Positions 1 to 36,697 of a stretch of DNA of 64,000 nt are shown here, one piece after another. The stretch's first letter is position 1. Every line of letters begins with the position of its first letter. The notes beneath the pieces were generated by a model. It searched no databases, had not been told where the DNA came from, and saw only the letters and a program-made list of their open reading frames with translations. This DNA comes from Blasia pusilla (lineage: Eukaryota). The position numbers and the translations under genes are program-made. The stretch is taken from the NCBI GenBank assembly GCA_050084515.1, contig CM114271.1, positions 14,942,001-15,006,000 of the forward strand, in the 5' to 3' direction.

Positions 1-682
1 CATGCCCGAGTCAGCGAGATGCGATTAGAGCTCGATGGCAGGGAGAGAGTGATGAGGATTTGGTGCGAGGATGGCACGCGTCAGCATATTTGGGCTTCTT
101 GGCTATGGAGAGCCATATTGCTGAGACTTCGATGGCGAGGTCTGATGAAGAGTCCTTAGATCTAGAGGCCAGTGAAGAGACGACAGGTGGCCGAGATATT
201 CACGACAATGGAGAAGTCTTCGAGTACGTGCGTAGTGGCAGCGTCGCAAGCACAATGGGTGCTAGAGAGCGGGATCGGATCCTACAGCAAGCTAGACGGT
301 TACGGTGGGTGGGGACATATGTATAGCGAGTGTGGGAGGATGATAGAGTGCTTGTAGTGCCTCATCCTTCATAGAGAGCACGTTTGGTGCGTCATGCCCA
401 CGAGGAGTTGGGTCATTTTGGAGTGAAGCGGATGTACAACTTGCTCCAGGTTCATTATCGGTGGCGAGGCATACATACTGATGTTCAACAGTTTGTTTCC
501 AGATGCATAGTGTGTGATCGAGTCCGGGCATCGTGCAATGCTCCGACTCCACAGTTGCATCCATTTCTGATAATGGGTTTAGGTTATATGTGGAGTTTGG
601 ATTTTGCATGACCTTTATCTTTGACGGAGCGTCATAGTTGTTATATGTTGGTGATGGTTGAGCACTATTCAAAGTGGATAGA
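1..682 (+). mobile_element. Ty3/Gypsy pol fragment (RNaseH-IN linker, integrase Zn finger and start of core), second copy of the family at 17378-21460; pseudogenised
   Basis: Colinear with 19828-20510 (HAHEELGHFGVKR...CIVCDR...WSLDFA). Cut off at 682 by a TGTCGCA LTR. Contains in-frame stops. Confidence 0.9.
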
Positions 683-1687
683 TGTCGCATTCCTACTCTC
701 CTTGAACGTCAATCTTTATCGTTGCGGAAGCGTATGTTCAGTAGGACACGATCTCATCGCCGGTCTGGATCCAAACACACACTCTCGTTAATCGGGTCTG
801 GATCAACCAGCGTTCCAACCCACCGAGTTCTCAACTTGGCGTCTCATCAAGATCAACCTTCCTTACTTTCTAGTTTCCAAAACATGGCAAGTTCTTCAAG
901 ACTTGGAACAAACTTCTTGATTAGTCCAGGAACCTACAACGGCACTTGCGCGCCTAGCGATCCCAACTGTTCAACCGACCTCGTGTGAGTTCCAAACTGA
1001 GACCCAAGTAATTGAGTCGCGGGGTGAAATCCAAGAGGGATGTCTAAAATCGCCTCCATAGACTTGGTTCAGATTTTCCAACCCAACCCCAAACTCTCGA
1101 TCCGTTCCATGCCCTTGACCCGCCCCATGGCGCCCAAAGTGGGGTTCAAGTTCCAAGAACTCTCAGAGACCTTCCCCCTTACAAGTACTTGTGGGGTTCT
1201 CCAATAATCCCCCCACCTTTTGGAAAAGGAGGGTCGGGCCCTTCGTTCTGGCCCTCAACCCGACTCTACTTACAGCAATTTCCAAGTTGTTTCTCAGCTG
1301 CTGCTTATGTGTTTGCAGATATCTTTAGTGGGTTTGAACCGTCTTTCCATAAGTCTTCCAACACATCCTTGTTCAATCCAAACACATCTTGGCGCTAAAA
1401 GTTATAGCCATAAATACGGTCAAAAACTCTCAAACGCAAGTGGCGTTCCAAATCCGGATTCTTCCTTTGGCAACCCACTTCCTAGACTCAACTCCTTTCA
1501 AGTCTTGTTCCGCGTTTGGTCCAGGTTTCTCAATCGCGACCATAACATCTAGAACACGACGCCTTGCTTGCGTTTCGTCTCTTGTCTCTTCTTCGAGACC
1601 ACTCCAACGCGCAAACCATCTTAGCGTGAGCCCGCTAATGTTTCAATGTTCCGCTTTTGCACTCGTTTGGTCATGAGGGTTGCGACA
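683..1687 (-). mobile_element. 3' LTR (~1 kb) of a chromovirus-type Ty3/Gypsy element
   Basis: Termini TGTCGCA...TGCGACA form a 7-bp inverted repeat. Minus-strand polypurine tract AAAGAGGGATGAG lies at 1688-1700. Near-complete second copy at 36698-37698. Confidence 0.9.
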
Positions 1688-2412: not shown

Positions 2413-2760
2413 TCACAACAACCCTTGCGCGTGTTCCAAATCCGCCTCCGTAATCCAAGTCGCCTCCTTCACATGGAAGCCCTTCCATTTAACCAAGTAT
2501 TCGTACTTGTTGGCCCGACGCCTCGAACGTAAGATGGTCTCCACCTCAAATTCCGGCTCTTCATTTATGATTATCGGGTGCGGTCTCACCACCTGTCTCC
2601 GCTCGAAACATCCATTATCTTGAAGATATTTCTTCAACAATGACACATGAAATATCGGGTGAATCTTGAACTCGTCCGGCAGCCCCAATGTATACACATC
2701 CTTAAACGGGTTTGCCACAATCACATACGGTCCAGCATACTTGGCAAACAGCTTTGCATT
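2413..2760 (-). mobile_element. Chromovirus integrase C-terminus (GPY/F module plus chromodomain); element truncated upstream
   Basis: AKYAGPY...YTLGLPDEFKIHPIFHVSLLK...EFEVETILRSRRRANKYEYLVKWKGFHVKEATW, a typical GPY/F plus chromodomain, upstream of the PPT and LTR on the minus strand. Confidence 0.9.
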
Positions 2761-4900
2761 TGATAATCATGCTGCATATTTTCGACTCACGCCCATGAAA
2801 AATTGATTGAAATTCCATCTTGTTGGAGCTAGTGGATGTCATGCATTCCTACAAATTGACTAGATATTTGTTGTTGTGTTTGAGTTTTTCAACCATTTAT
2901 GAGATAGGGCATTTATCGATTGATATGTCTATGCCACATATGCCACTCATGGGTTCATGTTAACATTTGATAGACCCTTTGATTCAATTGTGACCATATC
3001 ATGATGCTCAAAGTTACAACACGCCACCTGATCGTAATATTGTGCCACTCATGTCATCTAATTGTAATGTCGTCTTCCTATCATCATATCACAATAAACA
3101 CATAGAGAGAGGATTGCGTGACCTAGGGCATATAGAGGATATATAGAGCCATTGAAATTGAGGCCTATGAAAGGACTTTGAGGATGGGTCTCAATATGAC
3201 CTTGGATGACCATGAGGAATTGGCATGAAAACTTTACAAGATAGGGAAGAGGCAAGCACATCGACATCCCATATGAATCCTAGGAGGAACCTTTGTTAAC
3301 CACGATGTTGGAGGGCAGTTGCAACCATCTATAGTGATTTATATCTAGCATTGAAAATTCACCAAGATGAATAATATTGGACAAAAAAGTTTATACTTTT
3401 CTCTTGGTCGATGTAGGAGGAAGTGTTGATACTTTCTCTATTGACTCATACGAATTTAATTTTTCTTATAAATAATGGATAACCATGCATGTTTATTTTG
3501 TACTTAAAGACATTAACACAAATCCTTCTCATGTTCATGTTAACTCCTAATCTTGAGCATGTGGGCAAGTAGAGGGAGAGAGACAAAGCTTGGTTGTTAT
3601 AGTTCACCCTTTGAAATTTAGATAGTTTCTCACCTTCGAAGTATCAACTTTGTGCCACTACTTGTGGCCCTTCATCTAACTAAACATCATGACTATCGAC
3701 TTTGGGGTTTGCTTCTTGGGACATATCCTCAAGGTTATTTAGGGTACTCTAATGGATAATGACACCTTATATGTCTTCACTTCCTGAATTCATTATATTC
3801 TCGAACCTCATATTTTTTGCATGCTATTTCCAAATGCATGTCTCATGGTTGGTCTTGTCGTAATTCATGCTTTGGAAATAATTTTATGGTGATACCGATC
3901 ATTTTGATGAATCCTTCCTTCACCTCCTAGTTGGTCCTTTTCTTAGGAAATGGAATCAAGGCTTGCTCATGCATCTCATCTTGTTCATTAGTTCTCACAA
4001 ATGGTTCAAGACTTCGCTCATGTACAAGTCTCAAACCCTCTTAGTCCTATCACATAGTTTATTGGTCGAGTTGTATTGTAGTTGTTTCAAGGGTTCTCAC
4101 CCATCTTAACATACCCCAAAACCTTGTGAACCGCTCCATCCTTCTTCACTAGGCAAAATTTCCCGTATGACTCTTACATCCATCTTGAATATGCTTATGT
4201 CTCATGGCTTGTATTGCTTGGACTCCATGTTGTTTCCATAGTCTTGCAATCGACTTTATGATGGAAAAAGTTAAGTAAGATGATTCGTGGTCACGATTAT
4301 CAACGTAAGGCCCCGCCATCATACAAATCTAATCCTTAGCTTTTTGCGATGTGAGAGCAATAATAGGCTTGTGATTAATCAAAGTATTGTCAAGTTGAAG
4401 GAAGGATTGGCTTGATTCAACAAGAAACTAATCGATTTGGAGAATGTGGATCTCGATTGAATTATTATGTAGGCTCAATGAAACCTTAATTAAGGAAAAT
4501 AGTGTCAATATGTCCATGCGCCAAACTACTAATAGTTTATGTGACACAATTTCCATTTGTTGAAATTTATATGTTTGGTGAAAAAAAGGGGGAAAATTTT
4601 CAACTTTCACGTGAAATGTGATCAAGTAGTGGGAGTGAATTTGTGAAGAAACAAACTAGTGTTCATTTTTCTAATTGGAAAATCTTTAAAACTAGAAGAA
4701 TTTAAGCTGAAAATATCTTCACTCGATAGGCACGCGTACAACATTTCATGACCAACATTTTCACATGAAGGTGTGGAATTTTCTTCTAACACCACAAAAT
4801 AAATAAATAATGTAACGCAATAAACTATTTTGAAATTCTCTCACAAATCATAAAAAAGCGAAGTTATAAGAAATGACTATAAGAACCTTCATATAAGCTA

Positions 4901-5117
4901 CTAACAAGATGCTCGTGCGATGCACGAAAAATAGAAAAGTGTTTGAAGAGTTCTTGTTAGTGTATAGTCCGTGAAGGGAAGGAACTAATGATGTTACACA
5001 AAAATTCAAACTTTTTTCTGCCCGTGACATGAATTTTTTTTTTTTTACTACCCAATTGCTACCTGTCAAACAAAGATGTTTGCAAATCAAAAAAGCACTC
5101 TTACTTAATAATATAGA
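4901..5117 (-). mobile_element. Non-autonomous Helitron (~217 bp)
   Basis: On the minus strand: 5' TCTATATTATT, 3' hairpin CGTGCATCGCACG then TTAG (CTAG variant), inserted between A and T. Colinear with 14511-14712. Confidence 0.75.
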
Positions 5118-6023
5118 TTTTCATGACAAAATTCATATTATAATGAAAGAAATAAAAAAAAATCATTCCTAGGTAGTGGCGTTGGTGGTGTCCTTGGGAT
5201 CCCAATCGTATGAGGTGGGTAGTTGGATAAAAAATTAATTAAAAATTTTTAAAATGGGAAGTAGGAAATAATAAAAGTGATATTTCGGTGGATGGTCAAA
5301 GTCATGCGGTTAGCGGCAAAAACTCGTATCGTACTACCACTATGTGCTGTATCGCGTGGTGGACGGACGGCCGGATTTGATTGGCGTAGGTGCCACAACA
5401 GCGTGCGATGCGTGGTGGCTGTTGGATATTCACATCTACGGTCGTCCACAGAAGCGTGGCTGTATTTCTGTATTGTCATGAAAACAATTGTTTCACACCT
5501 TACGGCTCTGCTTAAATGGAAAATCGACAGCTTTTATATTAAGCTGTTCGATTGCATCTGGTTCTTGCGTGGACTCAAAAAATGGCCACAACTCTTTGTT
5601 CTTCGGATATTTCTACAATTTTCTCGGTGGTTTCAGTGCTTTTGGCGTCGCCCAGTTTATTTAAGTGGGAATTGTTTTCTTGACCTAGTGAGGGAAAGGG
5701 TGGGCTGTGCAAATATGCCAAGCAGAAATTATGCTAAAACATAGGGTATTTTAGTCACAATTGCGTGCTCGGCGCCGGTATTTTTGGCTTCCATTTTTAA
5801 TAAATATAATTAATTTCCATTAAGGTAATGATGAACGCCTTACTCTTCCATTTCCTAAGGAGTACCAAATAGCTCTTTACTACCATTTTCCATCTCCTTT
5901 GAAATTCAAACATGATCTTTCCTCCTCCCTCAAATTTTAGTCATCCATCATGATTTTAGGAACATTTCAAAAGAAAATTAAGAAAAGTGTTTGCATTTTT
6001 TCATGTTGAGCATATTGTGATAA

Positions 6024-6174
6024 TCCATATTATAATTTGAGGAGTGCTTATTACATGGCGATGACATATGTCATTCTTAATCTAACACATATTTCAGGAG
6101 AGGGGCGTATATGCACGTATACATTTCATGACACGGGGATGTGTATGCACAAGACCCTCGCGGGCACTAACTAG
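6024..6174 (+). mobile_element. Putative small non-autonomous Helitron
   Basis: A|TCCATATTATAAT start; short degenerate GC hairpin (CCCTCGCGGG) before CTAG|T. Confidence 0.45.
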
Positions 6175-8040
6175 TATAGACTATTGGAGGTTGATTATGT
6201 CTTCACATCCCACTCTCTTTTGCTTACTCTCATGATTGAAAAAAAAAAGAGGCCCTTTTATTTCAGCGATGTATTTGTCTATAAGTACATTAATTTTCTT
6301 TTAGTGTATATAAACCCCTTTTTCATCAAGAGATGTAAGGGTATGAAAGATGGTGATGGATTTTAAATGCAAAGATATGAAACGCCAAATATTTTATCAT
6401 GCATGTAAGCTTGCGGCCTATGTCTAATAATCTTGGTGACCAGCTTGTAACAATTCATGAGACTCTTTGCCAAATTAATCTTATCTCGTAAATAATTTTC
6501 GCAGGATAATTTGGTCTCATGGCATATTCTAAGAAATTGTGGCGTTGACGTATTGGTTTCCTTCGCTGTCTCTTTTATATATATAAATTCCATAAAATGA
6601 GGGAATTTTATTCAGTCTCCGTGTTTTCATTCGCTTTTATGTTTTTTTTCCCCTTCTTCTCTTCTAAAAAAAAGTAAAATAATTTCTCTATATGTGTTCA
6701 CGTCCATAAACTGCAGATGACTGCGTACGGAATGCTCATCCATGGAATCGCAACTTTAACACGTGTTAGCTAATCTTCGGCTTACATGTGACATGCATGC
6801 ATATGCATGTGATGATGCCACATGCTCAAATTGTTCCCTAACTGACCGCATTTTGCATATCACATGGACTTTTGAGAAGCCACATGTTTAGGGTCCGTTT
6901 AAACATCTCTCTCCTTAAATATAGTCATTTTTGGGGTTATGATGGATTTAGTACAGTTCGTAAACGTATGCTCCTCAACACGTGGCTCCATGCAGTTGGT
7001 GACATGCTTGCAATACCTTCTTCTACTTGTTGAATTTTCTTTTTTCTTTCTCATTGAAACACCCATTTTCATACGACTTTTCGTCTTGGACGGAATACAT
7101 GGGCTGGGATAAGGGAAATCATTGAAGACCTCATTTTGCTATTTGGGCTGGTGGGGAATGGTCCCCCTAATTGATGCGTCCAAATCCTCATCAAAAACCC
7201 ATTACCAAAGGGATGAACTCCTTTTGTATGCTCGTTTTAAGAAAAAGTTGCCAAGAGAGACCAAATTTGAGGGCATGTTTGAGTAATGTGTTGTAGTTGA
7301 ACGAATAATCTTGGTTACATTGTTCAAAAACTAGTGGGAGTCTAAAATTGATATAAGTACCAATTAAAAAATTTACCTTCATTTCCAAGTTACATGTAAA
7401 AGAAAAGGTTGAATACCATTTAACTCCTTTAGAAGTAAGAGTTTCATGGACTTATCAAAATGAAGAAAGCTTCTTTCTTCAGGTAATGGCACACTTACCA
7501 TTCCCGCGGAGAAGGCTCCTGCTTTCATAACATAGCCGTAGAGGAATTAAACCCAAAAACACTATTTTGGTCAAGCAAAATCGCAATACCCTTCCATTCT
7601 GATGTCAAGTTTTTTCAAGCAGTGCTGAGGGAATGTAACACTCACCTTGATTGCACTATTTCATACAACAAATGAGTCCAAGTGACACATACATAGGAGT
7701 ACCTGATGCATTTTCTCTTCCAAAAGAATGAGATGTACAAGTTTATCAACTGAGTTCAATTACTCACTTCAAGTGAATTGGAACTGAGTACTCGAGGAAA
7801 ACCGTTGGCGATTCCATCCGGAAAACATCTGAGAGACATTAAGGAGCTCACATGTCACTCCACTTGAGGTACCTTCACATGAAGGTCTTGCTTGTGCAGG
7901 CAGGGCTATGTCCCAATCAAATCAGGACCTCAGACACGAGCTATGATCATCTACCGTTCTGAAATTGAGAGTGATAGCTTTACAGTCCTCGTACGTTACA
8001 TTTCCTTTGCCTCTATTACCAAGGTATAGACTATAAATCT

Positions 8041-13485
<5,445 letters not shown>

Positions 13486-14510
13486 CTCCGCCTCCGGAAT
13501 TCGCCAACCGCGACTCGCAGACCCGATTATCCCCTGCTCCCAACTCCCCTCCCCTCCCCTCCAAACGCGGATCGAGCAACCTCGCTCTATCACCGACTAC
13601 CCATCTCTCGCCTCCAATACCCGCGCACCTTATCAGACACTCTATCCATACAGACGCTCATCTCAATCACAATCGAAATCTCTCTCTCTCCTTCCCTCCA
13701 ACACCTTCTTCCTGAGTTCTTTCTCTCTGTGCGGAGCAGGAGGAAGAAGAGCAGCTGCTGCTGCAGAGGGCTGGTGGTTCACAGGGGTTTGGGACGGGGT
13801 TGGGGTCCTCATCCGAGGGACTTCACTGGGCGACCGCCGCGTCGGCGGGGAGCGGGGCCACGTGGACGGGTGGACGTCGCCACGTGTGAGACGGAGAGGA
13901 AGGCGAACATTAGCCATGCAACTTGTTAGGCCCGCTGGCTGGCATTTGGCGAGAGGCTTCCGGTGTTTAATCGGGAAATTTTGTAATAAAGTTCTACGGT
14001 TTTATTTCTTAGATAAGTAATTAGAAAATACTATTTACCAGTTTCTTTTTTTAATTAAATTTTTTTTAGGACCTCTTGAGATTCCGCTCTTCATCATTCC
14101 AACACCACTTAATTAACAATGCCTAGCATGGGTATACTCACCAGGTATACTTGCCCATAGTTGAGTTAATTTCACCAAGTGTTTCCAACTCCTAGATAGA
14201 TGAAAATATCAATAATAATTTTATAGACGCGGAGTGCATTATAACCTATTGCAACATGTCCCTCCTCGGAACGCTTGCAACCAAACGCTTAGTTTGGTTT
14301 GCAAGCGTCCTTACTTCATGAATGCATGACCTCCACTTCTTAAGAAGACTGTTGTATAAACCATGCTTTATGGAGGACGGATGATCATATTGTCAAAAGT
14401 TTGAAGAAGCTTTTTTCTGCTTATGCTACGAAAGTACGTTCTAATCGTCGCAATGCTATATCCACGACAAAGAGGCATTTGCAAATCAAGAAGTTATCCT
14501 CCCTTAATAA

Positions 14511-14712: not shown

Positions 14713-15082
14713 TATAGATAGATAGATGAATAGATATGAGGAATTATGCCCAACATAATATCTTTATTACGAAGAAATTTTTCCTATTTTCCTTACTAAT
14801 CTTTTGGTTAGATCTTGTCTTCAGAAATCCCCTCGATCCGTTTTGTGTCCCTTGTTCAAAAAAACACCTCTTCTTATTGTATTTTACCGAAATCAGGCTT
14901 GATGAATATTTTCAAGAGCAATCACTACCAATTAGAAAATGTGTGATAAGTATTTACTTGAGGGAGGAATTCCATTTTGGACTTTGGGAGAAATCTAGAT
15001 GTTATCTATCAACTCAAAGTTAATTACCAACGATCTGCCTTTATTAACACCTAGCAAGCCACCACCACCTAGTCACACAATA

Positions 15083-15172
15083 ACGTGCGCCTACTCTCGT
15101 TGAACGATAATCTTTGTTGTTGCGGAAGCGTGGGTTTAGTAGGTCAGGCTCTCAACGCTGATCTGTACCCCA
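15083..15172 (-). mobile_element. ~90-bp fragment of an LTR end related to the 683/36698 LTR family
   Basis: CCTACTCTCGTTGAACG...GTTGCGGAAGCGT...AGTAGG aligns with the first ~90 nt of the LTRs at 683 and 36698. Confidence 0.65.
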
Positions 15173-15174
15173 GC

Positions 15175-16554
15175 CTCACGTCCGGCGTCTCCCTCGGCGC
15201 GTCTAGGTGGTGGTACTCTACCTCCTCCACGGGCAGCTGCACCACCCTGTCGGGAAACTCCAGCTCCTCATCCCCCAACGGGACCACCTAGTGCACAATC
15301 TCTAGGCCCACTCGGACCTGCTACTCGCTCTGGTGCCCTCTCTAGCCCTCGGTCCGGACGTAACTCAGGATGTAGACTGAAACACTAGGCGCGTGTTTGA
15401 CCATACCTTTGACAATATTCACACTGATAACCTACTGGTGCAGCACCATCTCCTCCTCCATGTTGAGGCACACGTCCATGACCCTGACGAGTGCAATCGC
15501 GCTGATGACGGGCTCCACCACATAACCAACAAGTAATAGTACGTGACTGCTGGTGAGCGGCATATGAAGGCGCAGGTCTCTGTGGCACGGCCTCTCGGTA
15601 TCCTCCTGAGGCGAGAGCGTGGGGCTGGGGGAAGCGATCCACGATTGTGTGCACCTATCTTGGACTCCAAGATGTTCGGTGGTGCCACAACCGACCTATC
15701 TTGAGTCCATGTTCTTTCGCACACAATCGTGGATCGCTCGCCAGAACCCATGGTGGCTACGCTCTCCTCTGCCATGTTGCGCTCAATGTTCTCATCGGTC
15801 CTAAAAACATCTCTCAATGTAGGTGAGGTGTTCATAAGAAGCACCCACTCCCGCACCTGTGTCCGCAGGGTCCGATCCAGCATCACGTACCATGACTGGA
15901 TAGCCTGAGCCTCTGTCACCCCTGAGTGACGTTGATCAACCGACGCAAGCGAGTATAAGCCTCACGTAAACTCTCACCCAGGCGCCTCTGGAAGTTGTGG
16001 GGGCTCCACAACTTTTCCGTTTGTACCCCCTGGTAGCTCGCCCTCAACTCAGCAAAGAACTCAACCACAGGGTTCAACCTCAGACGAACCCGACTAGACG
16101 GTGCAACTGCTCCCGTGCGAGTCACCCCTCCTAAAACGTCACTAGTGGAAGAGGAAGTAGCCTCTCCTGACTCCTCCTCCTCATCTAGGAACGGCTTCGT
16201 CCATGACACATAATGTGGGTCATAGTAGAGCCTCCACGCCTCGATCTCACGTGCATATCTCTGAGAGAACTCATGGTAATCGTCCATGGGCGCCCCCTCT
16301 AAATGCTGGAACATACCGTTCCATGCTGTAAATGGGTTAAACTCTCTAGAGTTCCTGGCCCGCTGGGAGTCGCACCAACTCCTAAACTCTGGTATGAAAT
16401 CGTGCAACTCAATCGTGCCTACTGGACCTGAAAACCTACGCGGTCCTCTACCCCGATCGTCCATCTCGTACGCCCAATTGGTAGGACCACTCACAATGTG
16501 TGGCGATGTGCTCACAAACTCCTCTACACCCTCCCCCTCGTCTGACAATGACAC
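15175..16554 (-). mobile_element. Ty3/Gypsy gag remnant (capsid-like region plus Zn knuckles), frameshifted
   Basis: ORFs 16554-15916 and 15919-15419 (FQRRLGESLREAYTRLRRL gag-like motif) followed by CCHC-like CWLCGGARHQRDC and degenerate CEYCQRYG. Confidence 0.75.
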
Positions 16555-17377
16555 AGAAGGAGGTCGACGTGGTCACTCACGTGCAGACCCTCGGAACGCC
16601 ACTCCGCGTAAAACCTCTAGAGCTACTCTCGGGTTCACCACCTTGCCTCTCAAAGTCCCGAACGGACTCCGTGATGACCCTCGTGCCCCTCTCACTCGAT
16701 CACTCTGAACCTCGTGAGTAATCCCTCAATCACTCATCCTAAACATGCGGCACTCGATCTACACTCTCCCTCCCCAAGACGTGTAACATGCGGCAATAGG
16801 CGGCGTGGTGCGGTAAATCGAAAAGACTATCATCTCATCGACAACCTACCCTCAACTCCGGACATCCCACACAGGTGTATGTTCCCTAAACCACATACGT
16901 AACTAATGCTCTCAGCATCCACACACCCAATATCCCCAAATAAACTACCAAAATCCCAGAATTCCTCACACGTGTAGGGTAAAGGACCAGAATGGGTAAC
17001 CTGAACACATGTCGATGTCGCTCCTCAGCAATTGTAAATCTTGACCCCAACTCGGTTGTGAAGCCAAACTCCTCAAACCAGAAAAACATAATCTGCTCCA
17101 CAATGACGGTGCGGCTCCGCGATCGAGACGGTGTGGTGCGACATTGAGCGGCACGGTGTGGAAATCGGTGGCGCGTTGCGGCTACGGGCGTCACGTCACG
17201 GTCCTCAATCTTCGTGGAGCAGCTTCCAACTCAAAACATAGTAACGCGGCTAGAAAACTCGAACCCCATAAATCATTGGGTCACACGTCGTCCAGAAAAG
17301 TACTCCAATCGGTCGACGACAGCTTGACGGGTAATGGGCCAGCTGACGGGTGAAAGGGCCTCGCGAAGGGTTGACGG

Positions 17378-18130
17378 CCTGACTTATTGTCTGCGTCCAC
17401 GGTACAGGGGTACCAGAGTTCCCTACCGAGGGATATTTCCTTGTTGGGGGCGCAAGACTTAGAGCGGGTAGGGACCATTGATTTGGTCATTTCCAGTTGG
17501 TCATGTTAGGGCCAATTGAGTGCTGGACGAGGTAGCGGGTTGGTTGACACTTGGTCCAGATTATTTTGGGAGATGTTGAGGGTCTTACGGCACTTGCAAG
17601 AGCACTAGTCTCGTCTCCACGCTACATTCTGGAGAATGTGCCGATCTTAGGAGACTCCATGTCACGGGTGGTGACGAGTGCTCATCAGGTACGTGCCTGG
17701 ATCAGCCCAGCAGTGTTCTTGGATGCGGCGAGTGTAGGTTCTAGAGCCCATCGCACGCGTCTATGGTGGACCAACTTGTTGCCCCATGTGGTGTTACGGA
17801 GGGCGTATGCGAGAGTGGAGCGCTCCTCCCAGTTGTTAGTGGATTCCATTCTAGATCCATGTCGTCAATCACAAGCAGAGAGGCACGATGATCAACCAAC
17901 CCTCACTTTGGTCAACAGGGTAGGCAGGCCGCGGGTAGCCTTTCCCACGTTTGTGAGTTTTCCCGCTGCCTATGCATACAAGGAGGCCCTTCTTGGCTTG
18001 GTTTGGGATGACCAGGTTCAGAGGTTGGTGGAGCCCAACGTCGATAAGAGAGAGCGGGCGACAGAAGCATCACGACGCCATGTCTTGGGTCAGGCAATGG
18101 ACCTGAACTGCTTGACATGGATCTTCAGCT
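17378..18130 (+). pseudogene. DNMT3-like cytosine-5 DNA methyltransferase domain embedded in a retrotransposon pol (disrupted; motif I absent)
   Basis: Translation across stops and a frameshift: DISLLGAQDLERVGTIDLVISSWSC*GQLSAGRGSGLVDTWSRLFWEMLRVL (motifs IV/V), YILENV (motif VI, ENV at 17632-17640), DAASVGSRAHRTRLWWTNL (VII/VIII), RRHVLGQAMD (X). Confidence 0.88.
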
Positions 18131-18474
18131 TGGGGGTGGCTGAGCAGCGTCGGATGAGATCGCCACAGATCACAGTAGTTGCGTTGGTGAGCCCCATGCC
18201 TACTGAGACGGTGGAGGCAGTGGCTGGGGGCGAGACCCGAGCAGATCGACACACCAGGGGAGATCGGGAGAGACACCCTTGGACTTCTTGGGATGTTTTG
18301 CAGGTACACCAAGAGATGATAGCCACAACATCGAGCGTGGTTCCGAGCACTGCATGTGGAGGAGATCATAGTTTGCAGTTGGCTGCAGAAGAGCAGTCGA
18401 GCGTTGTTGTTTGAGACGGGGTTGCACCATAGCAACCACCGATACCCACACCAGAGCGTCCTACCGTAGTCACG

Positions 18475-21460
18475 ATGGAGACTTGGAAGCCAGATATGGG
18501 CCCTAAGTTGACAGGAGGAGAGCGGCACCGGATACATCAGTTCCTCACGAGTGATAGGAGTTGCTTTGCATTTAGCATGGAGGATTTGGGTACGCTGAAG
18601 GGACCGGGGATCCGCATTGAGGTGTCGAGTGATACGCCGATCTTCCAACGATCCTATAGGTATAGTGATATTGAGAGGGCTCTGATTCAGAGTAGGAGCC
18701 AGGACTTGGTCAGAGAAGGACAAGTGGAGATGTCCCATGGGGAGTATGCATCTGCCATTGTCATGCCCGCCAAGAAGGATGTGCATGACAACTGGACGGA
18801 TAGGCGGATGTGTGGGGATTACCGACCTATCAATCGATAGACGAAGTCCGATAAGTATGCCATGCCCACCCCTGAGGAGATCTTTGATGCGATTTGTCAC
18901 GCAAAGGTCTTCAGTTCATTGGATTTGCAAGCTGGATACCATCAACTGCCTATCAAATTGGAGGTCAGGCAGAAGACGGCATTTTGGGGCATCGATCCTC
19001 ACGGGAAGGATTGTTTGTACCAGTGGCGGTTCTTACCTTTTGGGTTAAAGAACCCCCCGGCTGAGTTTCAAAGGGTCGTGGATAGGATCTTGGCTGGTCT
19101 CGATTTTGCTAGGTGTTATATTGATGACATCATAGTCTTTAGCGCCACGGTTGAGGAGCATGAGTGACATCTAGAGGACGTGTTTCAACGATTGCAATTA
19201 CATGGGCTGAAGCTACATCCAGGCAAGTGCAAGTTCTTCTACGACCAGATTGAGTACTTGGGTCATACGATATACCCAGGGGGCCTTGGTGTTCAGCATA
19301 CAAAGGTAGAGGCTATCTCACGCATTCCACGCCCTACAGATGTGAGCCGTGTTCGTGCATTCATGGGATTGGCGAACTTCTATCGGCGGTACGTCAAGGG
19401 ATTCAGTTCGATTGTGAAGCCTCTGACCTTGCTGACAAAGATGGATCATGAGTGGCACTGGGGGGATGAGCAAGAGCGAGCATTTGAGTTGCTCAAGGAC
19501 AAATTGACGTCTGCGCCCATCTTGAGGAGACCAATCCGGGGGCGTCCTTTCCAGTAGCACACAGATTGGAGCATGTTGGGGCTTGGAGCGGTGCTCACCC
19601 AACATGATGATGAGGGTAGAGAGTTTGTGGTTGCTTATGCTAGCCGCTCAAACAACGCTGTAGAGGCGAAGTACAGCTCGTATGAGGGTGAGTGCTTGGC
19701 TGCGGTGTGGACTGTCGCGCATTTCAGGTGCAACAATAGAGGGCTCTATTGTTGCAGGAATATGATTTTCAGGTGGTTCATAGATCTGGGACGCTCAACC
19801 ATGATGCAAATGGGTTGAGTCGTAACCCATGTCCGAGTCAGCAAGATGCGACTGGAGCTCGATGGCATGGAGAGAGTGATGAGGAGTCAGTGCCAAGATG
19901 GCACGCGTCAGCCTATTTAGGCATGTTGGCTATGGAGAGTCAGAGTGTGGAGACTTCGATGGCAAGGTCTGGTGGAGAGTCCTGGGATTCCGAGGCCAGT
20001 GAGGAGACGACAAGTGGCAGAGATATTCATGATGATGGAGTAGTCTTGGAGTACCTTCGTACTAGCAGCGTTGCCAGCACTATGGGTGCTAGAGAGCGAG
20101 ATCGGATCCTACAGCGGGCCAGACGGTTCCGTTGGGAGGGGACACATGTTTTGAGGGTTTGGGAGGATGGCAGAGTATGCGTAGTGCCACATCCTTTGCT
20201 GAGAGCATGACTAGTGCAGCATGCCCACGAGGAGTTGGGTCACTTTGGGGTGAAGCGGACGTACAGCTTGCTCCAGATTTTGTATTGGTGGCGAGGCATG
20301 CAAACTGACGTTCAGCAGTTTGTTGCCAAGTGCATGGTGTGTGATCGGGTCCGAGCATCGTTCAATGCTCCGACTCCACAATTGCATCCATTACCGATCA
20401 TGGGCTTAGGGTATAGATGGAGTTTGGATTTTGCAGGACCTTTGTCTTTGACGGAGCGTCACAGTCGTTATGTGTTGGTGATGGTCGAGCACTTCTCGAA
20501 ATGAATCGAGTTGGTTGCATTGCCTCATAAAGCGAGTGAGGGAGTAGCTTATGCCTTCCTTGATAGAGTGTTGAGTCATTATGGCACACCGGCTGAGATG
20601 TTGATAGACCAGGGTACTGAGTTTCCCGGTGAGTTCCAGGCCTTGGGCGCTCATCGACCATCGTACGACTTTGCGAGATCATCCCAAGGCAGATGGATTA
20701 GCGGAGAGAGTTTTGCAGACTGTGAAGAGGGGTTTATGCAAGTATGGCTTGCAAACAGGTCACCTAGGAGACTGGGACCTCCAATTGCGCTGGTTGGAAA
20801 TGGGATACAGATTCAGGAGGCAGGCATCCTTAACGTCTTTTTCATCGTACTTGCTACTTTATGGCCGAGAGTCAGTTTACCTACGGCCATTCGTCGAGAT
20901 GCTGGTGAGGTGCTGGATCTAGATGACCAAGATGTATGGATGTCAGCATGTTCTCAGAGGGCTGAGTTATTTCGGAGAGTGATGCCCATGGCGTTCGAGA
21001 ACTTGGCGATTGCACATCGACGAGATACGTTGAGGTATGTGAATATTCGGGGTGGTGGTTATCGACCAACTATCTTGAGGTTTCATCAGGGAGATTATGT
21101 CTACTTGTAGCAGACGACATCGAAAACGTTGGATGTGACTGCAGGGTGCACTATCTTGAGAGTGCATTATGTCTTGTCATCCGGTGTTCTCTTGCTGGAG
21201 GGACGCGATGGTATGGTATGGTATGGAAGGACCATGTGCGTAATTGTGCACCATGTCACCTTCCTAACATTGATGGTACAGTGGATCCGAGCTTAGCAGT
21301 AGTTCCTACAGGCTTACGTTGTATGTTGTGTGGTTCTGCCCGTGATGCGGCCACGATGCTAGTTTGTGATAGTTGTTCGAGAGATTGGCATATGGCATGT
21401 CTGACGCCACCTCTCACTAGGGTTCCTCGGGGACGATGGATGTGTCCCAGATGTACATAG
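18475..21460 (+). mobile_element. Ty3/Gypsy pol: reverse transcriptase - RNase H - integrase - PHD finger (pseudogenised)
   Basis: RT: RMCGDYRPIN, LDLQAGYHQ, LPFGLKN, YIDDI. RNase [51 protein letters not shown]. Terminal C4HC3 PHD at 21320-21454. Many stops, frameshifts and a deletion in RNase H. Confidence 0.93.
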
Positions 21461-21647
21461 AGGAGATACTGGGTAGGTTTCGATCCCGACTTTTTCTCTG
21501 ACATGGATGATAGGAAGACGACTAACGATGGGGCCACATGAGCACCCGGCCTTCTTGCTCTTAACGTCCGAGAGATGTATGTCATGGTAGGTAGGGATAG
21601 ATGGCTATCTGGAGTTAGAGGGACCTAACCATCAGCTAGGGGGGCGA

Positions 21648-21773
21648 TTGGAGATTTTTGGGTACTTCTTGTCTTGTTGTTTGGATGCCGTGAGTTAGCA
21701 TGGGATCGTGCGTGTTTGTGTGTGTGTTTGGTGACAGCGATGTATGTTGTGTACGATATGTATGCGCACGACA
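21648..21773 (+). mobile_element. Truncated LTR (3' end only) directly after a polypurine tract
   Basis: PPT-like AGGGGGGCGA at 21638-21647. Segment is a direct repeat of 22282-22412 and ends in GCACGACA. Confidence 0.7.
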
Positions 21774-21775
21774 AC

Positions 21776-22412
21776 TGTCACGTCCTTTAGGATAGATCGG
21801 TGAGATCTAGTAGAGCGTCTTCAAGAGTAGTGGAGGACATGCCTAGGAGGTCGAGGATGACCTACTGAGGCCCCGAGAAACCTGAGAGAGCAGGTTTCTG
21901 TTTCGTTTTGGCTCATTTGGAGCCATATTGAGGAACTTCCTATTTTAGGTAAGTACCATTTTGAGTATATGATCGACTTTATATTTTTGGTAAGTGACCC
22001 TTGACCTCCTACATCAGGTTAGGAGCCAAGGAGGTGACTTGGGAGAATAGGTTACCATGGAGAGAGCTTGGGAGAGGGGAAGGGTATAAATCCCAAGGAG
22101 AGAGAGCTTGAGAGCTCATTCTCTCTTTGTTGAACCTCTTGGCATGCGGCAACGGAGTTATGATCCCTTGCCTTGTGAGTGTAACCCAAGCCTCTCATTA
22201 GGAGAGTGGGTTTGGTTTGACATTGGAGAGAGTGCACACCTTTGAGAGTTATGGTGTAGAGAGAGATTGGATCTTACTTTATTGGAGATATTTTGGTACT
22301 TCTTGTCTCGTTGTTTGGATGCCATGAGTTAGCATTGGATCGTGCGTGTTTGTGTGTGTGTGTGTTCGGTGACAACGATGTATATTGTGTTGCGATGGGT
22401 ATGCGCACGACA
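21776..22412 (+). mobile_element. Complete LTR (~637 bp)
   Basis: TGTC...GACA termini; TATAAAT at 22085. Homologous inverted copy at ~35160-35630. Confidence 0.8.
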
Positions 22413-22559
22413 GTCTCCTCCCCCCTCTCTATACGTACTTTTAGGGGTCTCCAAGCAAAGGGAACCCCAATTTTCCCATTATCCACCTTGGGCCCTTCAT
22501 TTTGGCATACAATCCAAACATGGTTCACGACTCGCAGACGTGCGCTTGACTAGTACCCC

Positions 22560-23060
22560 CCAAGATGGCTTGGTGGAGTCTTCCTAAAGATTTTGCAACT
22601 CCCAACTACTCAAATGCATGTTAGAGCTTGGACCCACATTTTGTGAATCTCATGACAAATGTTTATCTCAAATCCTGCCATTTTTTATCTTATGGTTATC
22701 TTACCGTCTTTTGTGTTTCATGACTAGTCTTATGGCGTCAAGCCCTTCTTGACTACACTCATGCTCCTTGTTACTTGCCCACGACTTGGAGCTTGGCTTA
22801 AGGATCACACTTTGCTTTCCTGGCCCTTATCTTGGCAAATAACTACACCCTTTCTGACCTAAGGCTAGTCTCAAGGCACGTGTCTGTCGTGACTAGCATC
22901 AATAATATGGTCGGTTCCTCCGCCCTTCCTAGTTCCACGAAAAAGTGGTGTAGGTTTCAACTTTGGTAGGCTACACCAATGTCTCTCCTTCTTGAACTGG
23001 AATCATGACTCGCTTCTTGGGTTCTTGCCAGCCTAGATGCCATAATCTTGGATATTCGCG
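22560..23060. repeat. Dispersed repeat, probably an LTR fragment; copy at ~43480-43980
   Basis: Shared blocks such as TGACTAGTC..TGGCGTC, CCTAAGGCTAGTC and ATCATGACT.GCTTC occur in the same order in both copies. Boundaries approximate. Confidence 0.65.
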
Positions 23061-26000
23061 ATGATATGCCTTGTAGAGGCGATAAACCTTGGTTCTAAGG
23101 TTGGAAAGGCTATGCACACAGACCATTCGCAAGAGTAGATTACAACGATGGAATTGAGGTTTCTTGATGTTGGATTAGTCAAAATATCTTGTATAAAGCA
23201 TGTAGGGATAGAGAAGATCTTGGATGAATGTGTGAGGCTATATAAATAGAGGCAGCTACGATGATTATAAGGTATTGTGTAATGTGAGTGAAGAGATGGT
23301 TTTCTTGCATTACAATAAAAGGTAGTTAAAGAGGAGGTGAATGACTTGACCTTGGAGCCTATGCTCGTATTGCCCACTTTTGGTTCATGGCAAGCTACAC
23401 TTGCAAAATCGGAGGAGATGTACGCCAAACGCGCCATAGAGTTTGCCATGATTTCTCCAAGAGTTGTAATGTTGGATAACCAAGGAAAGATTTTATGCTT
23501 GGTTAATTTAGAAGATAGAGGGTATTGTTCGCGATGTATCTTGTTGGATTTAGAAGTGCATCCCTTGATGTTAGGGAAGGGGTCATGCACATATTTCGGT
23601 TTGACTTGGGCTCGCATTCAGCAATGTCCATTCAAGATTTAGACATCAATTGATGGGGCCAATTAATCAGTCCACATGAGATGGTAGGTGGGATCAAGCT
23701 AGAGCATGTGGCTGTTGCTCTAGCTTGGTGGGTGGTATGGGGGTTTAAGAGAGATGGAATGATCCTCCATTGTAAGAAGAGAAGTTGCAAAGCTCAAGAA
23801 GATCCTTACCTCTCTAGAGGAATGGAGGCACGTGGGCCCTCTCTCGAGGGCTAGAGGGTCCCTTGGGCCCAATGTATAGCATGAGCACAAAAGTAATAGT
23901 ATAATCTATTATCGTAGACTTTATTCTAACAAGATGCTTTTTTTTTACAAAAGGAATACCTGGTACAATTTCACTCCTTGTCAAAATTCTTGTGTGTGCA
24001 CAACAATACATAACAAACATCATCATCACATACACACATGTTCATTAATCTCCCCGATGTAGCGTAAGTATATATACACTATCATACCAAGAGGCCATAC
24101 AATCTATAACATTCAAGGAAAGACCTTTTGTTGACATTGACCACTACTCATTATGACCCTTGCGTGTACTCCCAATATTGTTTTTACTCACCATCTAGCC
24201 TATCCACTTGTACTTCACACGAGTTGAATAACGGATTCCTCCCCCCTCCCTCCCTCTCAAAGGGAGGAACGGGGGAGAATATCCTCCATTATCTTACGCA
24301 CAAGTGTGCTTCTCCCAAACAAATCATGTTTGGTGGGTCTTTCATTCATCTTTTATCTTCTTTCCTTACGTTAATGATCTATCCATTACGTTAATGAAAT
24401 AAAATCTATCCATACGTCAATGATAGATTTTTTTTCTCAACTAGTTTCTCATCCCTTATCATGCATCTTCTATTTTGTATATTCCACCAGAGAGATTTTC
24501 TCTAGAACTTAGTTAGGGTCCAAATGTATCTCTCCCTTTGATCCTTGTCCAAGTGTCCATTACTCTAGTGCCATAGATCTCCCTAAGGCACACATGGAGG
24601 AGGGTCAATTCATTCCTCCTCCCTACCTCATGTTTCCTTGACATTTTGAAAATGTACTTAACATATTCCAATTTCTCTCTTTGAGTTCTGTGTATACTCT
24701 TACTTTGTTGAAATCATCCATTTCTTTCCTTATATGCTATATTACATTCTTTCCTCCTATGCTATATTAACAATAAATTTCCTATCATTACACACTTTCA
24801 CATGCACTAAAGATTTAACACAACCCCAAAAAAAATCACATATATACACCATCTCATGAAAGTCTTTGATTGAAAATTCATCACTTCATAGCCCACAAGT
24901 TTACTGTAACTTTACCTCCCCTGGCTAAATTCCAATCCACAAGCTTTCCAGTTTTGGTAGTGCTAGTGATTAGGTTATTGACATGCATATGTTGCAAGGA
25001 CTGCAAGGATATCGTTTTTAATGGGGCGACTGTAGTATGATGGTTTCTCGTCCTAGGACATGAATAAATTCTCCTGCGGTTCTTTGAGATTCAAAATACA
25101 AAGAACATATTTTCAGCATTTCTTAAGTGTTCGTGTCTGCTTGACATTTGAAATCTAAATAGTTCATGTTCAGATCGGACGTATCTGACTTACATGCCCT
25201 CTTCGCCTTTTTCCTCTCCTGCTTAGAACCCCTGCCTTCCCTTGGGCATGATTAGCCTTTAGATATTTCTTTTTCTGCTGCCCAAGGATTCCCCCCACAC
25301 GGTCATCCACCTGGAATACTGTGATTGTCAAGACTTCGGCATTACTGCTCCTGTGAATGAATTAGTGAGGTCTGCAGTTGGTGTGTTCCAGCGCAGGTTC
25401 ATTGTCCATTGCAGGTTGGTCTACAACCTTTCAAGGTATGACCCTGAGATAGATTTAACTTCAGAACAGTGCACAAGAACAGTTGATTCTAGTAACTCCC
25501 ACATATTCGGAACCACCCACCACACATTATGCTGCTTCACCCACTAGGCGATCTATGATGAACTCAAAGATCTGATGAGGTTCCACGGGCAGTGAACAAA
25601 CCCACTTGGTGATTTGGCTTCAGAGTGCGCGCTCCATGCAGATGTAATTTAATAAGAGCATTCCTCAAGGATGATGGGGCAGGAAAGAAAGTTGTCAGGC
25701 AAACTCCCAGGAAGACGGAAGCAATTCACACCCCATCCTTTCTCCCATTATCCAAATCACTGTGAGGATCGATATCCAAGCGATGGAAAACACTTGAGTC
25801 GCAGGCCACCCATTGGTCTCCCCATGACTTTCATTGCAACCATCTCTCTCGGTTTCAGAAAAATCACATGGTCTGCACAAAAGGGTGACCCTTTTGGCAT
25901 TGTGGGGATGCACATCTTTGTGCTGTGCGTTTCTAACTACTGTAAGCACCATTTCCAGAATGCCCTGATAGAAATGTGGAACAAAAGATTGACTTTGACA

Positions 26001-35159: not shown

Positions 35160-35630
35160 CTCTCCATGGTGTGCATTCTCTCTCATTTCAAACCAAACCC
35201 ACTTTCCTAATGAGAGGCTAGGGTTACACAAACAAGGCAAGGAGGACCATAGCTTCGCTGCCTCATGCCAAGAGATTCAATAAAGAGAGAATGAGCTCTC
35301 AAACTCTCTCTCTTGGAGGTATACCCTCTTCCCTCTCCCAAGCCCTCTCCATCGTAACCTATGCTTGTAGGTCACCTTCTTGGCTCTTGACCTGTTCTAG
35401 CGGGTTAAGAGCCACTTCCCGAAGTGGAAAGTTAGCTATACTACAAACTGTAACTTATCGGAAATAGTAATTTCCTCAATATGGCTCCAAATGAGTTGAA
35501 ACGAAGGGGAAACCTGCCTCTAAGGTTACCCGTAGCCTTATCACGTCATCCTTGACCTCCTAAGGCTATCCTCCAACATCTCCAAAGGCGATCTACTAGA
35601 TCTCGCCAAACTATCGTAAAAGACGTGACA
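35160..35630 (-). mobile_element. LTR fragment homologous to 21776-22412, nested in the Harbinger element
   Basis: Reverse-complement match (CAAACCAAACCCAC..CCTAATGAGAGGC, GAGAGAATGAGCTCTCAA, CTACTAGATCTC); ends ACGTGACA at 35630. Left boundary uncertain. Confidence 0.75.
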
Positions 35631-36697
35631 AGATGCACGAAGACAACAAAAGCATCCAAGAGTTAATCAACCAACCTCATGTGACAAAATTGTGGAAGAA
35701 GAGAGCAGCAAAAGAAGGCATATCAAAAAACTTGGTCAAACTTATTCTCTAGGTTAAACTTTTCGACAAGTACACATTCAAGGAGCAGAGCAGTATTCAT
35801 AACACCCAAACATGCCTAGGGAAAAGGAAGGGCAGAAAACAAAAAATGTACAGAAACCCAAACAACGACAAGTACAAACACAAAGATAAATCATACTAAA
35901 AATAGTTTGACACAGAATGATATATCATCATCATCAACACATTCTTCTTTAGCTCCTAGTTTCAACACTAGCAATGAATATAGGTCCTGATTTAACAACC
36001 ATGTTCAGCAGATATCCAAGTTTTTTATGAAACAAAACAATAACCACCTCCACTATTGATTTACTCGAACCTGGGCAAAAAAAAAAAACATCAACTATAA
36101 AAATACCATCAAGTATCTTCTCTTGAGATTGATTGTGCCTTTTTTTATAATGCTATTGACATGGGGGTTCACGGAGACCATGGAACTGTGCAGCCACTAT
36201 TAGTTGGGGGTGACTTGCCATTTCTTACTGTTTGTAGGGGGTTCACATAGTTCACAAAACTTCCCACATAAACCCAAACCCTCCTCTTCAGCTTGACAAT
36301 GCCCTTTTTCATCACCATAAAATACCTCTTCATTTTCATCATAAGCTTCTTCTTGGGTATAGATATAAACTATGTCCTCCGTTATTTGTGCATGACCATT
36401 GGCATTACCATTTTCCGTCACCTGCAAATTCAATCCAACACAGAATTTATGATAAAATCTATGGGAGGTTTCCAAGAAACAGGCCCTCCATGGATCAGAA
36501 TGGTCTCTTCATCATGACTAAAATTCACTTTGTACAAGCAAAGGCTATTAGGCCTCAATGTCAACCTCAACTTCACCCAGCCCAACTTCATCCTGGGAGC
36601 ATAAGTGGTATCTGATCTGCTTTAACCCAATGGTTGTGCCCTTAACTCCTCCACTTCTAATGCTGCAAGATCCCAATCACTACATAGAGTCAATCAT

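Follow-up and report, generated by a model that had tools for sequence, protein, structure and literature searches.

Introduction

Cytosine methylation is the main weapon of the host against transposons, and a transposon equipped with a de novo methyltransferase of its own is a counter-intuitive object. Retrotransposons of this kind have been described from Symbiodinium and Klebsormidium (de Mendoza et al., 2018; PMC5890265), as the earlier reading of the present DNA, made from its letters alone and called here the sequence-only reading, had correctly stated. Here we analyse a 64,000-nucleotide stretch of the Blasia pusilla genome (contig CM114271.1, positions 14,942,001 to 15,006,000), hereafter the window. 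Its plus strand carries, at 17370-22412, a 5'-truncated and decayed remnant of a Ty3/gypsy-type retrotransposon whose family encodes a DNMT3-like C5 methyltransferase and a PHD finger; an inverted gag fragment of the same family adjoins it at 17152-15277 on the minus strand.

KnitGypsy-Dnmt3 of Klebsormidium nitens has, like the present family, an intronless DNMT3-type domain within a Gypsy polyprotein, with non-permuted motifs and conserved catalytic residues. It also combines Gypsy-type domains with DIRS-like repeats: the A-coding-B-A-B layout given for DIRS elements, which KnitGypsy-Dnmt3 is said to share (de Mendoza et al., 2018), is met here in the window and in two metagenome loci, L010 and L021. 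The hosts differ, being in our case land plants (Marchantia, Calypogeia and Sphagnum) together with Closterium. The PHD finger, the leaky stop and the domain order described below are absent from the main text of that paper, the figure or supplements of which may show the order and the PHD finger. No Klebsormidium-named protein stands among the matches listed in three of our searches (18, 12 and 93), and KnitGypsy is compared by description only. SymbioDIRS-Dnmt3 of Symbiodinium likewise carries a DNMT3-type domain in a retrotransposon with A-coding-B-A-B repeats, but it belongs to an unrelated retrotransposon class with a tyrosine recombinase instead of a DDE integrase, and its hosts are dinoflagellates. 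In yeast, according to the parts of the paper available to us, the SymbioDIRS-Dnmt3 domains methylated CG de novo; the Klebsormidium Gypsy domain gave no methylation there, a result that the authors call inconclusive.

Host DNMT3 proteins (animal DNMT3A/B/C and plant DNMT3) provide the best match to the catalytic domain by sequence and predicted fold. The element's domain differs from them in sitting in a multi-copy Gag-protease polyprotein, with the PHD finger on the integrase end of the other open reading frame (ORF). Plant DNMT3 carries DUF3444 (Yaari, 2019, as far as seen), the Marchantia host enzyme is MpDNMT3b (Mp5g09290), and the Marchantia papers, in the parts covered, list host methyltransferases only. 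Two domain orders are distinguished in this work: type A, in which the methyltransferase lies between RNase H and integrase (reverse transcriptase (RT)-RNase H-methyltransferase-integrase-PHD), and type B, the order of the window, in which it lies between protease and RT. A literature search, with subscription journals mostly outside its coverage, returned no account of a methyltransferase-bearing retrotransposon in a land plant, a natural PHD-integrase, the leaky stop, the two orders or type A; later papers on streptophytes cite, in the parts covered, de Mendoza et al. (2018) only. A retrotransposon DNMT3 is known already in Klebsormidium and is here extended to land plants.

Architecture of the element and its remnant in the window

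The intact element begins with repeat A and a leader (about 1.2 kb separate repeat A from gag in relatives), followed by ORF1, encoding Gag with CCHC knuckles, an aspartic protease and a DNMT3-like C5 methyltransferase. After an in-frame stop comes ORF2, encoding RT, RNase H, integrase and the PHD finger, and the repeats B, A and B close the element. Taken as a whole, this explanation is, in our judgement, highly probable; the separate parts of its proposed manner of working are graded one by one below. Alignments to the family used a hidden Markov model (HMM) made from ten homologous proteins. The window copy retains the following parts.

17378..17617, plus strand: methyltransferase motifs IV-V region, frame 2 (family HMM positions 931-1010, E 4e-34)
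17614..18336, plus strand: methyltransferase motifs VI-X, frame 1 (ENV at 17629-17637, RAHRTRLWWTNL, LGQAMD)
18337..18474, plus strand: end of ORF1 and junction to pol, with stops TGA 18412-18414 and TAG 18430-18432
18475..19731, plus strand: RT and RNase H, frame 1, with in-frame stops at 18838, 19165 and 19555
19743..21221, plus strand: integrase, frame 3, with frame 1 over 20647-20877 and stops at 20208, 20502 and 21108
21215..21460, plus strand: integrase C-terminal tail with PHD finger, ending in stop TAG 21458-21460
21461..21646, plus strand: 3' untranslated stretch, with a purine run (AGGGGGG) at its end, right before repeat B

All the motif strings quoted in the sequence-only reading lie where it had placed them, and the catalytic Cys codon at 17504-17506 is indeed TGT, followed by TAG at 17507-17509. 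Motif IV reads IDLVISSWSC-stop-GQLSAGRGSGLVDTWSRLFWEM / GQLSAGRGSGLVDTWSRLFWEMLRVL in frame 2; downstream of the motif IV-V region, frame 1 translates into YILENVP, SRAHRTRLWWTNL and RRHVLGQAMD. The family consensus GWPCQG has thus become SWSC-stop-G in this copy (Pro to Ser, and the Gln codon to a stop), and a second stop in the same piece lies at 17606. Family HMM positions 997-1255 align to 17575-18336 at E 8e-99, 13 residues being visibly missing in the motif IX region, and the motif VI-X piece is 52-59% identical to Marchantia proteins.

The RT-RNase H stretch is matched by the Pfam profiles RVT_1 (E 7e-16) and RT_RNaseH_2 (E 1.7e-16) and is 66.6% and 62.7% identical to the Marchantia proteins P0012 and P0045. 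In the integrase piece, which tblastn with P0038, P0041 and P0045 also matches, a zinc-binding H2C2 segment at 20214-20357 (Integrase_H2C2, E 8.6e-17) is accompanied by a decayed DDE core (weak rve match, E 0.047). A PHD finger after integrase, as had been claimed, is found by Pfam at 21320-21454 (E 2.9e-11, 43.6 bits). The stretch 21519-21780 aligns with the sequence that precedes the 3' repeat of loci L001, L010 and L021.

The copy is dead, as the sequence-only reading also held: it is 5'-truncated and has ten in-frame stops and at least five frameshifts, the frame of the plus-strand fragment changing near 17613, 19735, 20646, 20878 and 21215. The window copy itself does nothing, and statements about function below refer to the family.

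Family members were found in liverworts (Marchantia, Calypogeia), a moss (Sphagnum) and a green alga (Closterium). Pfam places methyltransferase, RT and RNase H in this order in Marchantia P0012, and methyltransferase, RVT_1, RNase H and rve in P0192 of Closterium sp. NIES-54, while the Marchantia models P0042 and P0043 combine methyltransferase pieces with a PHD finger. Two ENA proteins, P0168 (2188 residues) and P0337 (2327 residues), each consist of one ORF with zf-CCHC, Asp_protease, DNA_methylase (46-48 bits), RVT_1, RNase H, Integrase_H2C2 and rve. P0168 thereby shows the Ty3/gypsy order protease-RT-RNase H-integrase together with a Gag CCHC knuckle, and the RT-RNase H-integrase order of the window agrees with it.

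A metagenome scan with the family alignment gave 330 relatives, of which 80 loci were kept; a scan for related loci with P0030 as query returned none. Locus L037 is intact. Its ORF1 (976-5085, 1369 residues) contains Asp_protease and DNA_methylase (51 bits) and terminates in TAG, and its ORF2 (5086-8229, 1047 residues), in the same frame, contains RVT_1, RNase H, H2C2, rve and PHD (40.6 bits). Domain probes in tblastn were consistent with a methyltransferase before RT in 79 of the 80 loci; the full order from methyltransferase to PHD was seen in 23 of the 80, and a PHD finger lies downstream in 22 of the 24 loci that extend at least 4.6 kb beyond the methyltransferase. The one-strand, intronless order methyltransferase-RT-RNase H-integrase-PHD proposed by the sequence-only reading is therefore real in the window and recurrent among relatives. 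The continuous pol frame for which it proposed a test is seen in P0168 and P0337; L037 has one in-frame TAG, and the Pro of the PCQ motif is often Glu.

The 288-residue ORF of the window matches 18 proteins (E 1e-71 to 1e-5), with precomputed PF00145 annotations on 13 of them and Calypogeia fissa, Marchantia polymorpha and Sphagnum fallax among the named sources. PF00145 is passed by the relatives P0003 (34.9 bits), P0004 (35.6), P0168 (46.1) and L037 ORF1 (51.1). Judged by these comparisons, the methyltransferase motifs of the window are far more than chance.

Several observations count against this picture. Pfam finds no PF00145 match in the 44- and 288-residue ORFs of the window, and a read-through translation with X at the stops reaches only 13.8 bits (E 0.039) against a cut-off of 22. 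Motifs I-III are missing from the window copy, family HMM positions of about 870-930 being unmatched, and no pair of terminal repeats was found around it. P0168 and P0337 have no Pfam match to PHD, one of the 80 loci reads RT-RNase H-methyltransferase, and two of the 24 sufficiently long loci lack a PHD finger. The 288-residue ORF also retrieves no chain from the PDB at E<=10. The absence of PF00145, which the sequence-only reading had named as a sign of chance juxtaposition, is thus true of the decayed pieces in the window but untrue of the family, and its second sign, family copies without the methyltransferase, did not appear, since relatives carry the domain upstream of RT.

If the arrangement were accidental, a host DNMT3 pseudogene would have come to lie beside an unrelated pol fragment. 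The rearranged state of this copy, with gag inverted and the protease elsewhere, and the single-copy junction immediately upstream (17153-17369) are what such an accident might leave behind. Against it, the methyltransferase stands between protease and RT in Marchantia and Closterium proteins, in the uninterrupted ORF of 2188 residues and in 79 of 80 loci; its stretch of the window is as repeated and as transcribed as the RT stretch; and the methyltransferase and RT trees share their nearest neighbours. We regard an accidental origin as having next to no likelihood. Just as negligible, in our view, is a domesticated gene derived from a retrotransposon and serving the host. Gene models do exist for the Marchantia relatives, but the window copy has its ten stops and at least five frameshifts, and its sequence occurs in very many copies in the DNA run. 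Decay is also the rule among the 80 loci, an ORF of at least 700 residues being found only in L037 and L055. What follows treats the locus as a dead member of a retrotransposon family with a methyltransferase of its own.

Further observations concern the decay of this copy. The stops at 17507 and 18838 are TAG where relatives read Gln (in PCQ, and in DYRTINRQ of P0012), and Marchantia model P0006 terminates at the same RT residue as the window stop at 18838. The ten window stops comprise six TAG and four TGA, a pattern that fits C-to-T decay at methylated CAG or CG sites. A candidate for motif I, LNLRGAAS near 17204 (frame 2, faintly resembling LDLFGGIS), was rejected because the family HMM leaves residues 1-58 of P0001 unaligned and the stretch is single-copy.

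DNMT3 likeness and catalytic residues

The sequence-only reading had likened the methyltransferase to DNMT3 rather than to MET1 or CMT. A family profile searched against the PDB matched 46 chains at E<=0.01, and the 29 best were all DNMT3A, DNMT3B or DNMT3C (1.1e-12 to 7.6e-8). HaeIII, DRM (4onj) and DNMT2-type chains followed at about 1.5e-4, the last group extending to 4e-3, and the 46 matches include no DNMT1 or CMT chain. The same alignment shows a non-permuted motif order, unlike that of DRM, again as proposed. In the family consensus the motifs LFGGISTG, GWPCQG, ILENVP, RAHRARLWWTNL, ERERAMGF and LGQAMD follow one another in canonical order.

An AlphaFold2 model was built from a 28-sequence alignment for P0134, a methyltransferase-only protein of 325 residues that adjoins the clade of the window. 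It reached a mean predicted local distance difference test score (pLDDT) of 94.5 and a predicted template modelling score (pTM) of 0.91. All Foldseek matches of this model listed to rank 48 are DNMT3A, B or C chains, the best being 6w89_A (E 8.9e-20; target template modelling score 0.78). By sequence and predicted fold, the catalytic domain matches the DNMT3 family best. PWWP, ADD and DUF3444 were sought in P0002-P0004, P0012, P0168, P0337 and L037 ORF1, and none was found.

Conservation was counted in 190 complete single domains drawn from 257 matches, 67 partial ones being excluded. The catalytic Cys is present in 189 of 190 domains, the Glu-Asn of ENV in all 190, each Arg of RxR in 189 and the motif I Gly in all 190; among the type B domains the corresponding figures are 19 of 20 for Cys and 20 of 20 for ENV. 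Going by these counts, the catalytic residues of the predicted family methyltransferase are nearly invariant. The Pro of the PCQ motif is nearly universal among C5 methyltransferases. Here the residue before the Cys is Pro in 106 of 190 domains and Glu in 73, Glu taking its place in 61 of 152 type A and 4 of 20 type B domains.

This replacement, which speaks against a conventional enzyme, bears on the question whether the protein writes 5-methylcytosine into DNA in vivo at all. It might instead be a non-catalytic partner resembling DNMT3L, an RNA methyltransferase resembling DNMT2, or a decoy for host factors, and the negative yeast assay of KnitGypsy-Dnmt3 described above points the same way, inconclusive though its authors call it. 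The retention of Cys, the ENV Glu-Asn and RxR in 189 or 190 of 190 domains is, however, unexpected of a non-catalytic partner, and DNMT2-type chains score 1.5e-4 to 4e-3 against 1e-12 for DNMT3A. A protein without DNA-methylating function thus seems unlikely to us. For an active DNA methyltransferase, the proposed substrate would be cytosines of the element's own new DNA or of the insertion site, a suggestion that we put forward tentatively and with less than even confidence.

Copy number and transcription in the source species

In the source species the family has many copies and is transcribed, nearly all transcripts coming from copies other than the one in the window. Three stranded RNA runs from one study, bearing the same species label as the best DNA run, were aligned at a likeness of at least 85%. 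They gave 4,341, 4,351 and 4,639 aligned reads, only 129, 161 and 187 of which are at least 95% alike to the window. About 97% of the aligned reads thus fall below 95% likeness and derive from other copies. At four of the five frame-change sites, between one third and three quarters of the reads are longer or shorter than the window, so that those breaks are private to this copy or to a subset of copies.

The strand of the reads flips exactly where the inverted fragments join. First mates over 15200-17152 have a plus-strand depth of 12-53 and a minus-strand depth of 0-10; over 17370-21700 the minus-strand depth is 28-257 and the plus-strand depth 0.4-18. This pattern means sense transcripts of both gag and pol, given a dUTP-type library; the dependence on that assumption detracts from the argument.

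Two side observations belong here. Reads joining 18596 to 19668 and skipping 1071 nt of RT occur 14, 25 and 11 times in the three RNA runs; the ends of the joint, GA..GC, are not intron-like, which suggests that a family derivative with an internal deletion is transcribed. Words of the element also make up small shares of four "air metagenome" runs of one study, from which we draw no conclusion.

A probable leaky stop between methyltransferase and RT

Gammaretroviruses express gag-pol by read-through. In plant viruses, UAG-CAR-YYA is the consensus for efficient read-through (PMC3542737, as far as covered), and the tobamovirus-type arrangement resembles the present one in having a single in-frame stop between an upstream ORF and a pol-like ORF. 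The element differs from such leaky-stop systems in that protease and methyltransferase lie upstream of the stop, and its read-through is a deduction from sequence. In the window, the TAG at 18430 stands between METHYLTRANSFERASE and RT, in frame with RT and in the context TAG-CAA-CCA. The family HMM ends where this junction lies, and eight gene models from Marchantia, Calypogeia and metagenomes stop no more than four residues from that end. The end of the methyltransferase and the start of RT share a frame in 44 of the 59 loci that have both. In 24 close loci exactly one in-frame stop is found at the same place (TAG in 17, TAA in seven), followed by CAA-CCC, and the more distant pair L037 and L047 read TAG-CAG-TTA. 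The contexts of the window and of L037/L047 fit CAR-YYA.

Some features sit less well with a conserved leaky stop. In the window, an extra TGA (18412) precedes the TAG by 18 nt. The 24 loci that share the stop are near kin from a few related metagenomes and amount to roughly one lineage; their context ends in C rather than following YYA. Eleven more distant loci and P0168 have no stop at all. P0168 and L055-L072 form a distant type B branch, about 31% identical to Marchantia and with one continuous ORF, so the mode of pol expression varies within type B. On balance we think it likely that Pol would be produced by read-through of a leaky UAG in a CAR-YYA-like context, in which case the methyltransferase, like Gag and protease, would be far more abundant than RT and integrase.

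The PHD finger on integrase

The C4HC3 pattern of the PHD finger is unbroken in the window. PF00628 is present in 11 of the 12 homologues of the PHD tail, and rve plus PHD in nine of the 12, which include proteins of Calypogeia, Sphagnum and Marchantia. Compared with the PDB, the best of 114 matches is the second PHD finger of CHD4 (2.4e-19), and further matches are PHF12, KMT2C/D, the first PHD finger of KDM5B, KAT6A, PHF21A, DPF3, ATXR5, AIRE and UHRF1. Most of these matched fingers bind the histone H3 tail with unmodified K4.

Chromoviruses are Ty3/gypsy elements with a chromodomain at the integrase C-terminus. They resemble the present family in fusing a chromatin reader to that end of the enzyme and differ from it in the reader, which is here a PHD finger; no chromodomain was matched in any scanned protein (window pieces, relatives and L037). 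By analogy with chromoviruses, the PHD finger may tether the integration complex to nucleosomes of a given H3 tail state, probably unmodified H3K4, and so play a chromodomain-like role. We consider the case for and against this role evenly balanced.

Terminal repeats

The 3' end of the window copy is made up of three repeats in the order B-A-B, and a further repeat A lies downstream in inverted orientation.

21647..21775, plus strand: repeat B, first copy (88% identity to 22281-22412)
21776..22280, plus strand: repeat A (long terminal repeat-like), 3' copy, its start matching the 3' repeat A start of L001, L010 and L021
22281..22412, plus strand: repeat B, second copy, probable 3' end of the element (B-A-B layout)
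35160..35630, minus strand: inverted repeat A without flanking B (80% identity to 21776-22248), a solo repeat or the 5' repeat of another copy

Repeat A, about 340 nt long, stands on both sides of the body in L001, L010 and L021, its copies being 91-94% identical, and a repeat B of about 110 nt brackets the 3' repeat A only (93% in L021, 95% in L010). As these alignments read, the repeat layout of the family is A-coding-B-A-B, as in DIRS elements. The window copy holds only the 3' set, B-A-B; comparison of the minus strand of 17400-16440 with 21461-23300 gave a score of 23, below the shuffle maximum of 27.

A wider superfamily with two domain orders

When 1.84 billion representative sequences were searched with a profile, 8,770 matched at E<=1e-3, 1,515 at E<=1e-10 and 341 at E<=1e-30. 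The profile (509 positions) included part of the integrase-PHD region of P0019, and the ranking of the best 150 favours the algal type. Those 150 comprise 99 of type A, six of type B, 36 with the methyltransferase only and nine with integrase and/or PHD only; named type A members are the pol of Scenedesmus sp. PABB004 and a protein of Haematococcus lacustris. The algal type A elements resemble the window's family in their methyltransferase (P0017 matches the family HMM at E 1.5e-77), in RT (43% identity), in integrase-PHD (35%) and in the PHD finger after integrase. They differ in the place of the methyltransferase, between RNase H and integrase instead of protease and RT.

A FastTree phylogeny of 190 methyltransferase domains, midpoint-rooted, with no outgroup or host DNMT3 and with the window copy not included, places all 20 type B tips and two methyltransferase-only tips in one clade (support 0.87), which is nested five nodes deep in type A. 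Nearest to this clade stand P0134 and P0089, followed by P0276, P0286, P0096, P0113, P0131 and P0278. For RT-RNase H, a tree of 109 proteins sets the type B clade (P0192, P0168 and P0045; support 1.0) beside P0278 and P0089, with P0286, P0096, P0131, P0137 and P0276 as the next neighbours. The nearest neighbours of type B are metagenome proteins. Since the two trees agree on neighbours, the domain would have travelled with the element and been relocated rather than captured twice, which suggests a move of the methyltransferase within the polyprotein.

The bryophyte-type elements might also have captured their methyltransferase independently of the algal type A elements, with no single capture and relocation. 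The domain does occupy different positions in the two groups, the trees are rooted only at the midpoint without an outgroup, and recurrent captures are documented (de Mendoza et al., 2018, in the parts covered). The 20 type B domains nevertheless form a single clade whose neighbours overlap in the methyltransferase and RT-RNase H trees, and a PHD finger after integrase is common to both groups. Separate captures strike us as improbable.

Together with relocation, the results above would make up a larger proposal, which we advance with reserve because we rate it, taken as a whole, as possible yet somewhat less probable than its opposite. There would be a green-lineage Ty3/gypsy superfamily in which a DNMT3-like writer is joined by a PHD reader, with 341 clusters (50% identity, E<=1e-30). 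In its Closterium-bryophyte branch the methyltransferase would have left the linker between RNase H and integrase for the Gag-protease ORF, where it would precede a leaky UAG and be made in Gag-like amounts. Elements of the superfamily would be under transcription in a present-day land plant, with gene models in the liverwort Marchantia, and land plants would have active de novo cytosine methylation encoded by retrotransposons.

Rearranged surroundings and other features of the window

Upstream of the plus-strand remnant and elsewhere in the window lie further pieces of the family.

15277..16467, minus strand: inverted Gag fragment with CCHC knuckles (family HMM positions 3-382)
16468..17152, minus strand: 5' untranslated region of the family upstream of the inverted gag, no terminal repeat included
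17153..17369, no strand assigned: single-copy junction between the inverted fragments (DNA word depth 5.0)
1..695, plus strand: second integrase-region fragment of the family (83.6% DNA identity to 19828-20509; tblastn with P0038, P0041 and P0045)
23307..23666, plus strand: protease fragment on its own, belonging to the family or to a relative (family HMM positions 559-676, E 6e-21)

The inverted Gag fragment gives three family HMM matches (E 1e-66, 1e-17 and 2e-18), is 50-56% identical to Marchantia P0003/P0004, and lacks its 3' end; it carries one frameshift pair and is interrupted by stops at 15918 and 15387. The untranslated region beside it is repeated in the DNA run and covered by gag-sense RNA reads. 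At the junction the DNA word depth is 5, the other 29 bins ranging from 4,372 to 183,202, and the RNA depth in the junction bin is about 3-5; from the depth of 5 it follows that two truncated inverted fragments meet at a single-copy junction. The isolated protease fragment has DLE in place of the family DSG motif, and Pfam gave no match over 23307-23666.

Other features of the window are independent of the family. A second repeat occurs at 663-1693 and 36678-37704 (also 15071-15170), with 88-92% identity between the long copies; the copy at 663-1693 starts where the integrase fragment 1-695 ends, and this repeat is probably another transposon that inserted at that point. At 50654-50900 an 82-83-nt unit is repeated three times in tandem (93-95% identity). 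Exons of a host pyridine-nucleotide disulphide oxidoreductase, a split gene with long introns, run along the minus strand at 8457-13596 (Pyr_redox_dim at 8457-8927, E 2e-21; N-terminal GxGxxG exon at 13081-13596). By eye the gene resembles glutathione reductase, and some 1.7 kb separate its end from the inverted gag fragment. On the plus strand, the exon at 53689-54480 encodes a CGLD27-like domain ("conserved in the green lineage and diatoms 27", E 1.6e-29), the one feature of the window that points directly to a green-lineage organism. An Rfam scan of the whole window matched no family.

Implications

The sole streptophyte case in print, that of Klebsormidium, showed no activity in yeast and comes from an alga that is hard to work with. 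Relatives of the present element are annotated in Marchantia polymorpha, for which knock-downs, methylomes and chromatin maps exist, and the question thereby becomes testable. Concrete experimental handles are offered by a methyltransferase that precedes the probable leaky stop and so lies on its abundant side, by the PHD finger of the integrase, by the DIRS-like repeats and by the two domain orders, whose trees are congruent. These features bear as well on the exchange of methyltransferases between hosts and transposons in plant evolution. If the proposal is true, retrotransposon-encoded de novo cytosine methylation would be an active and testable process in land plants.

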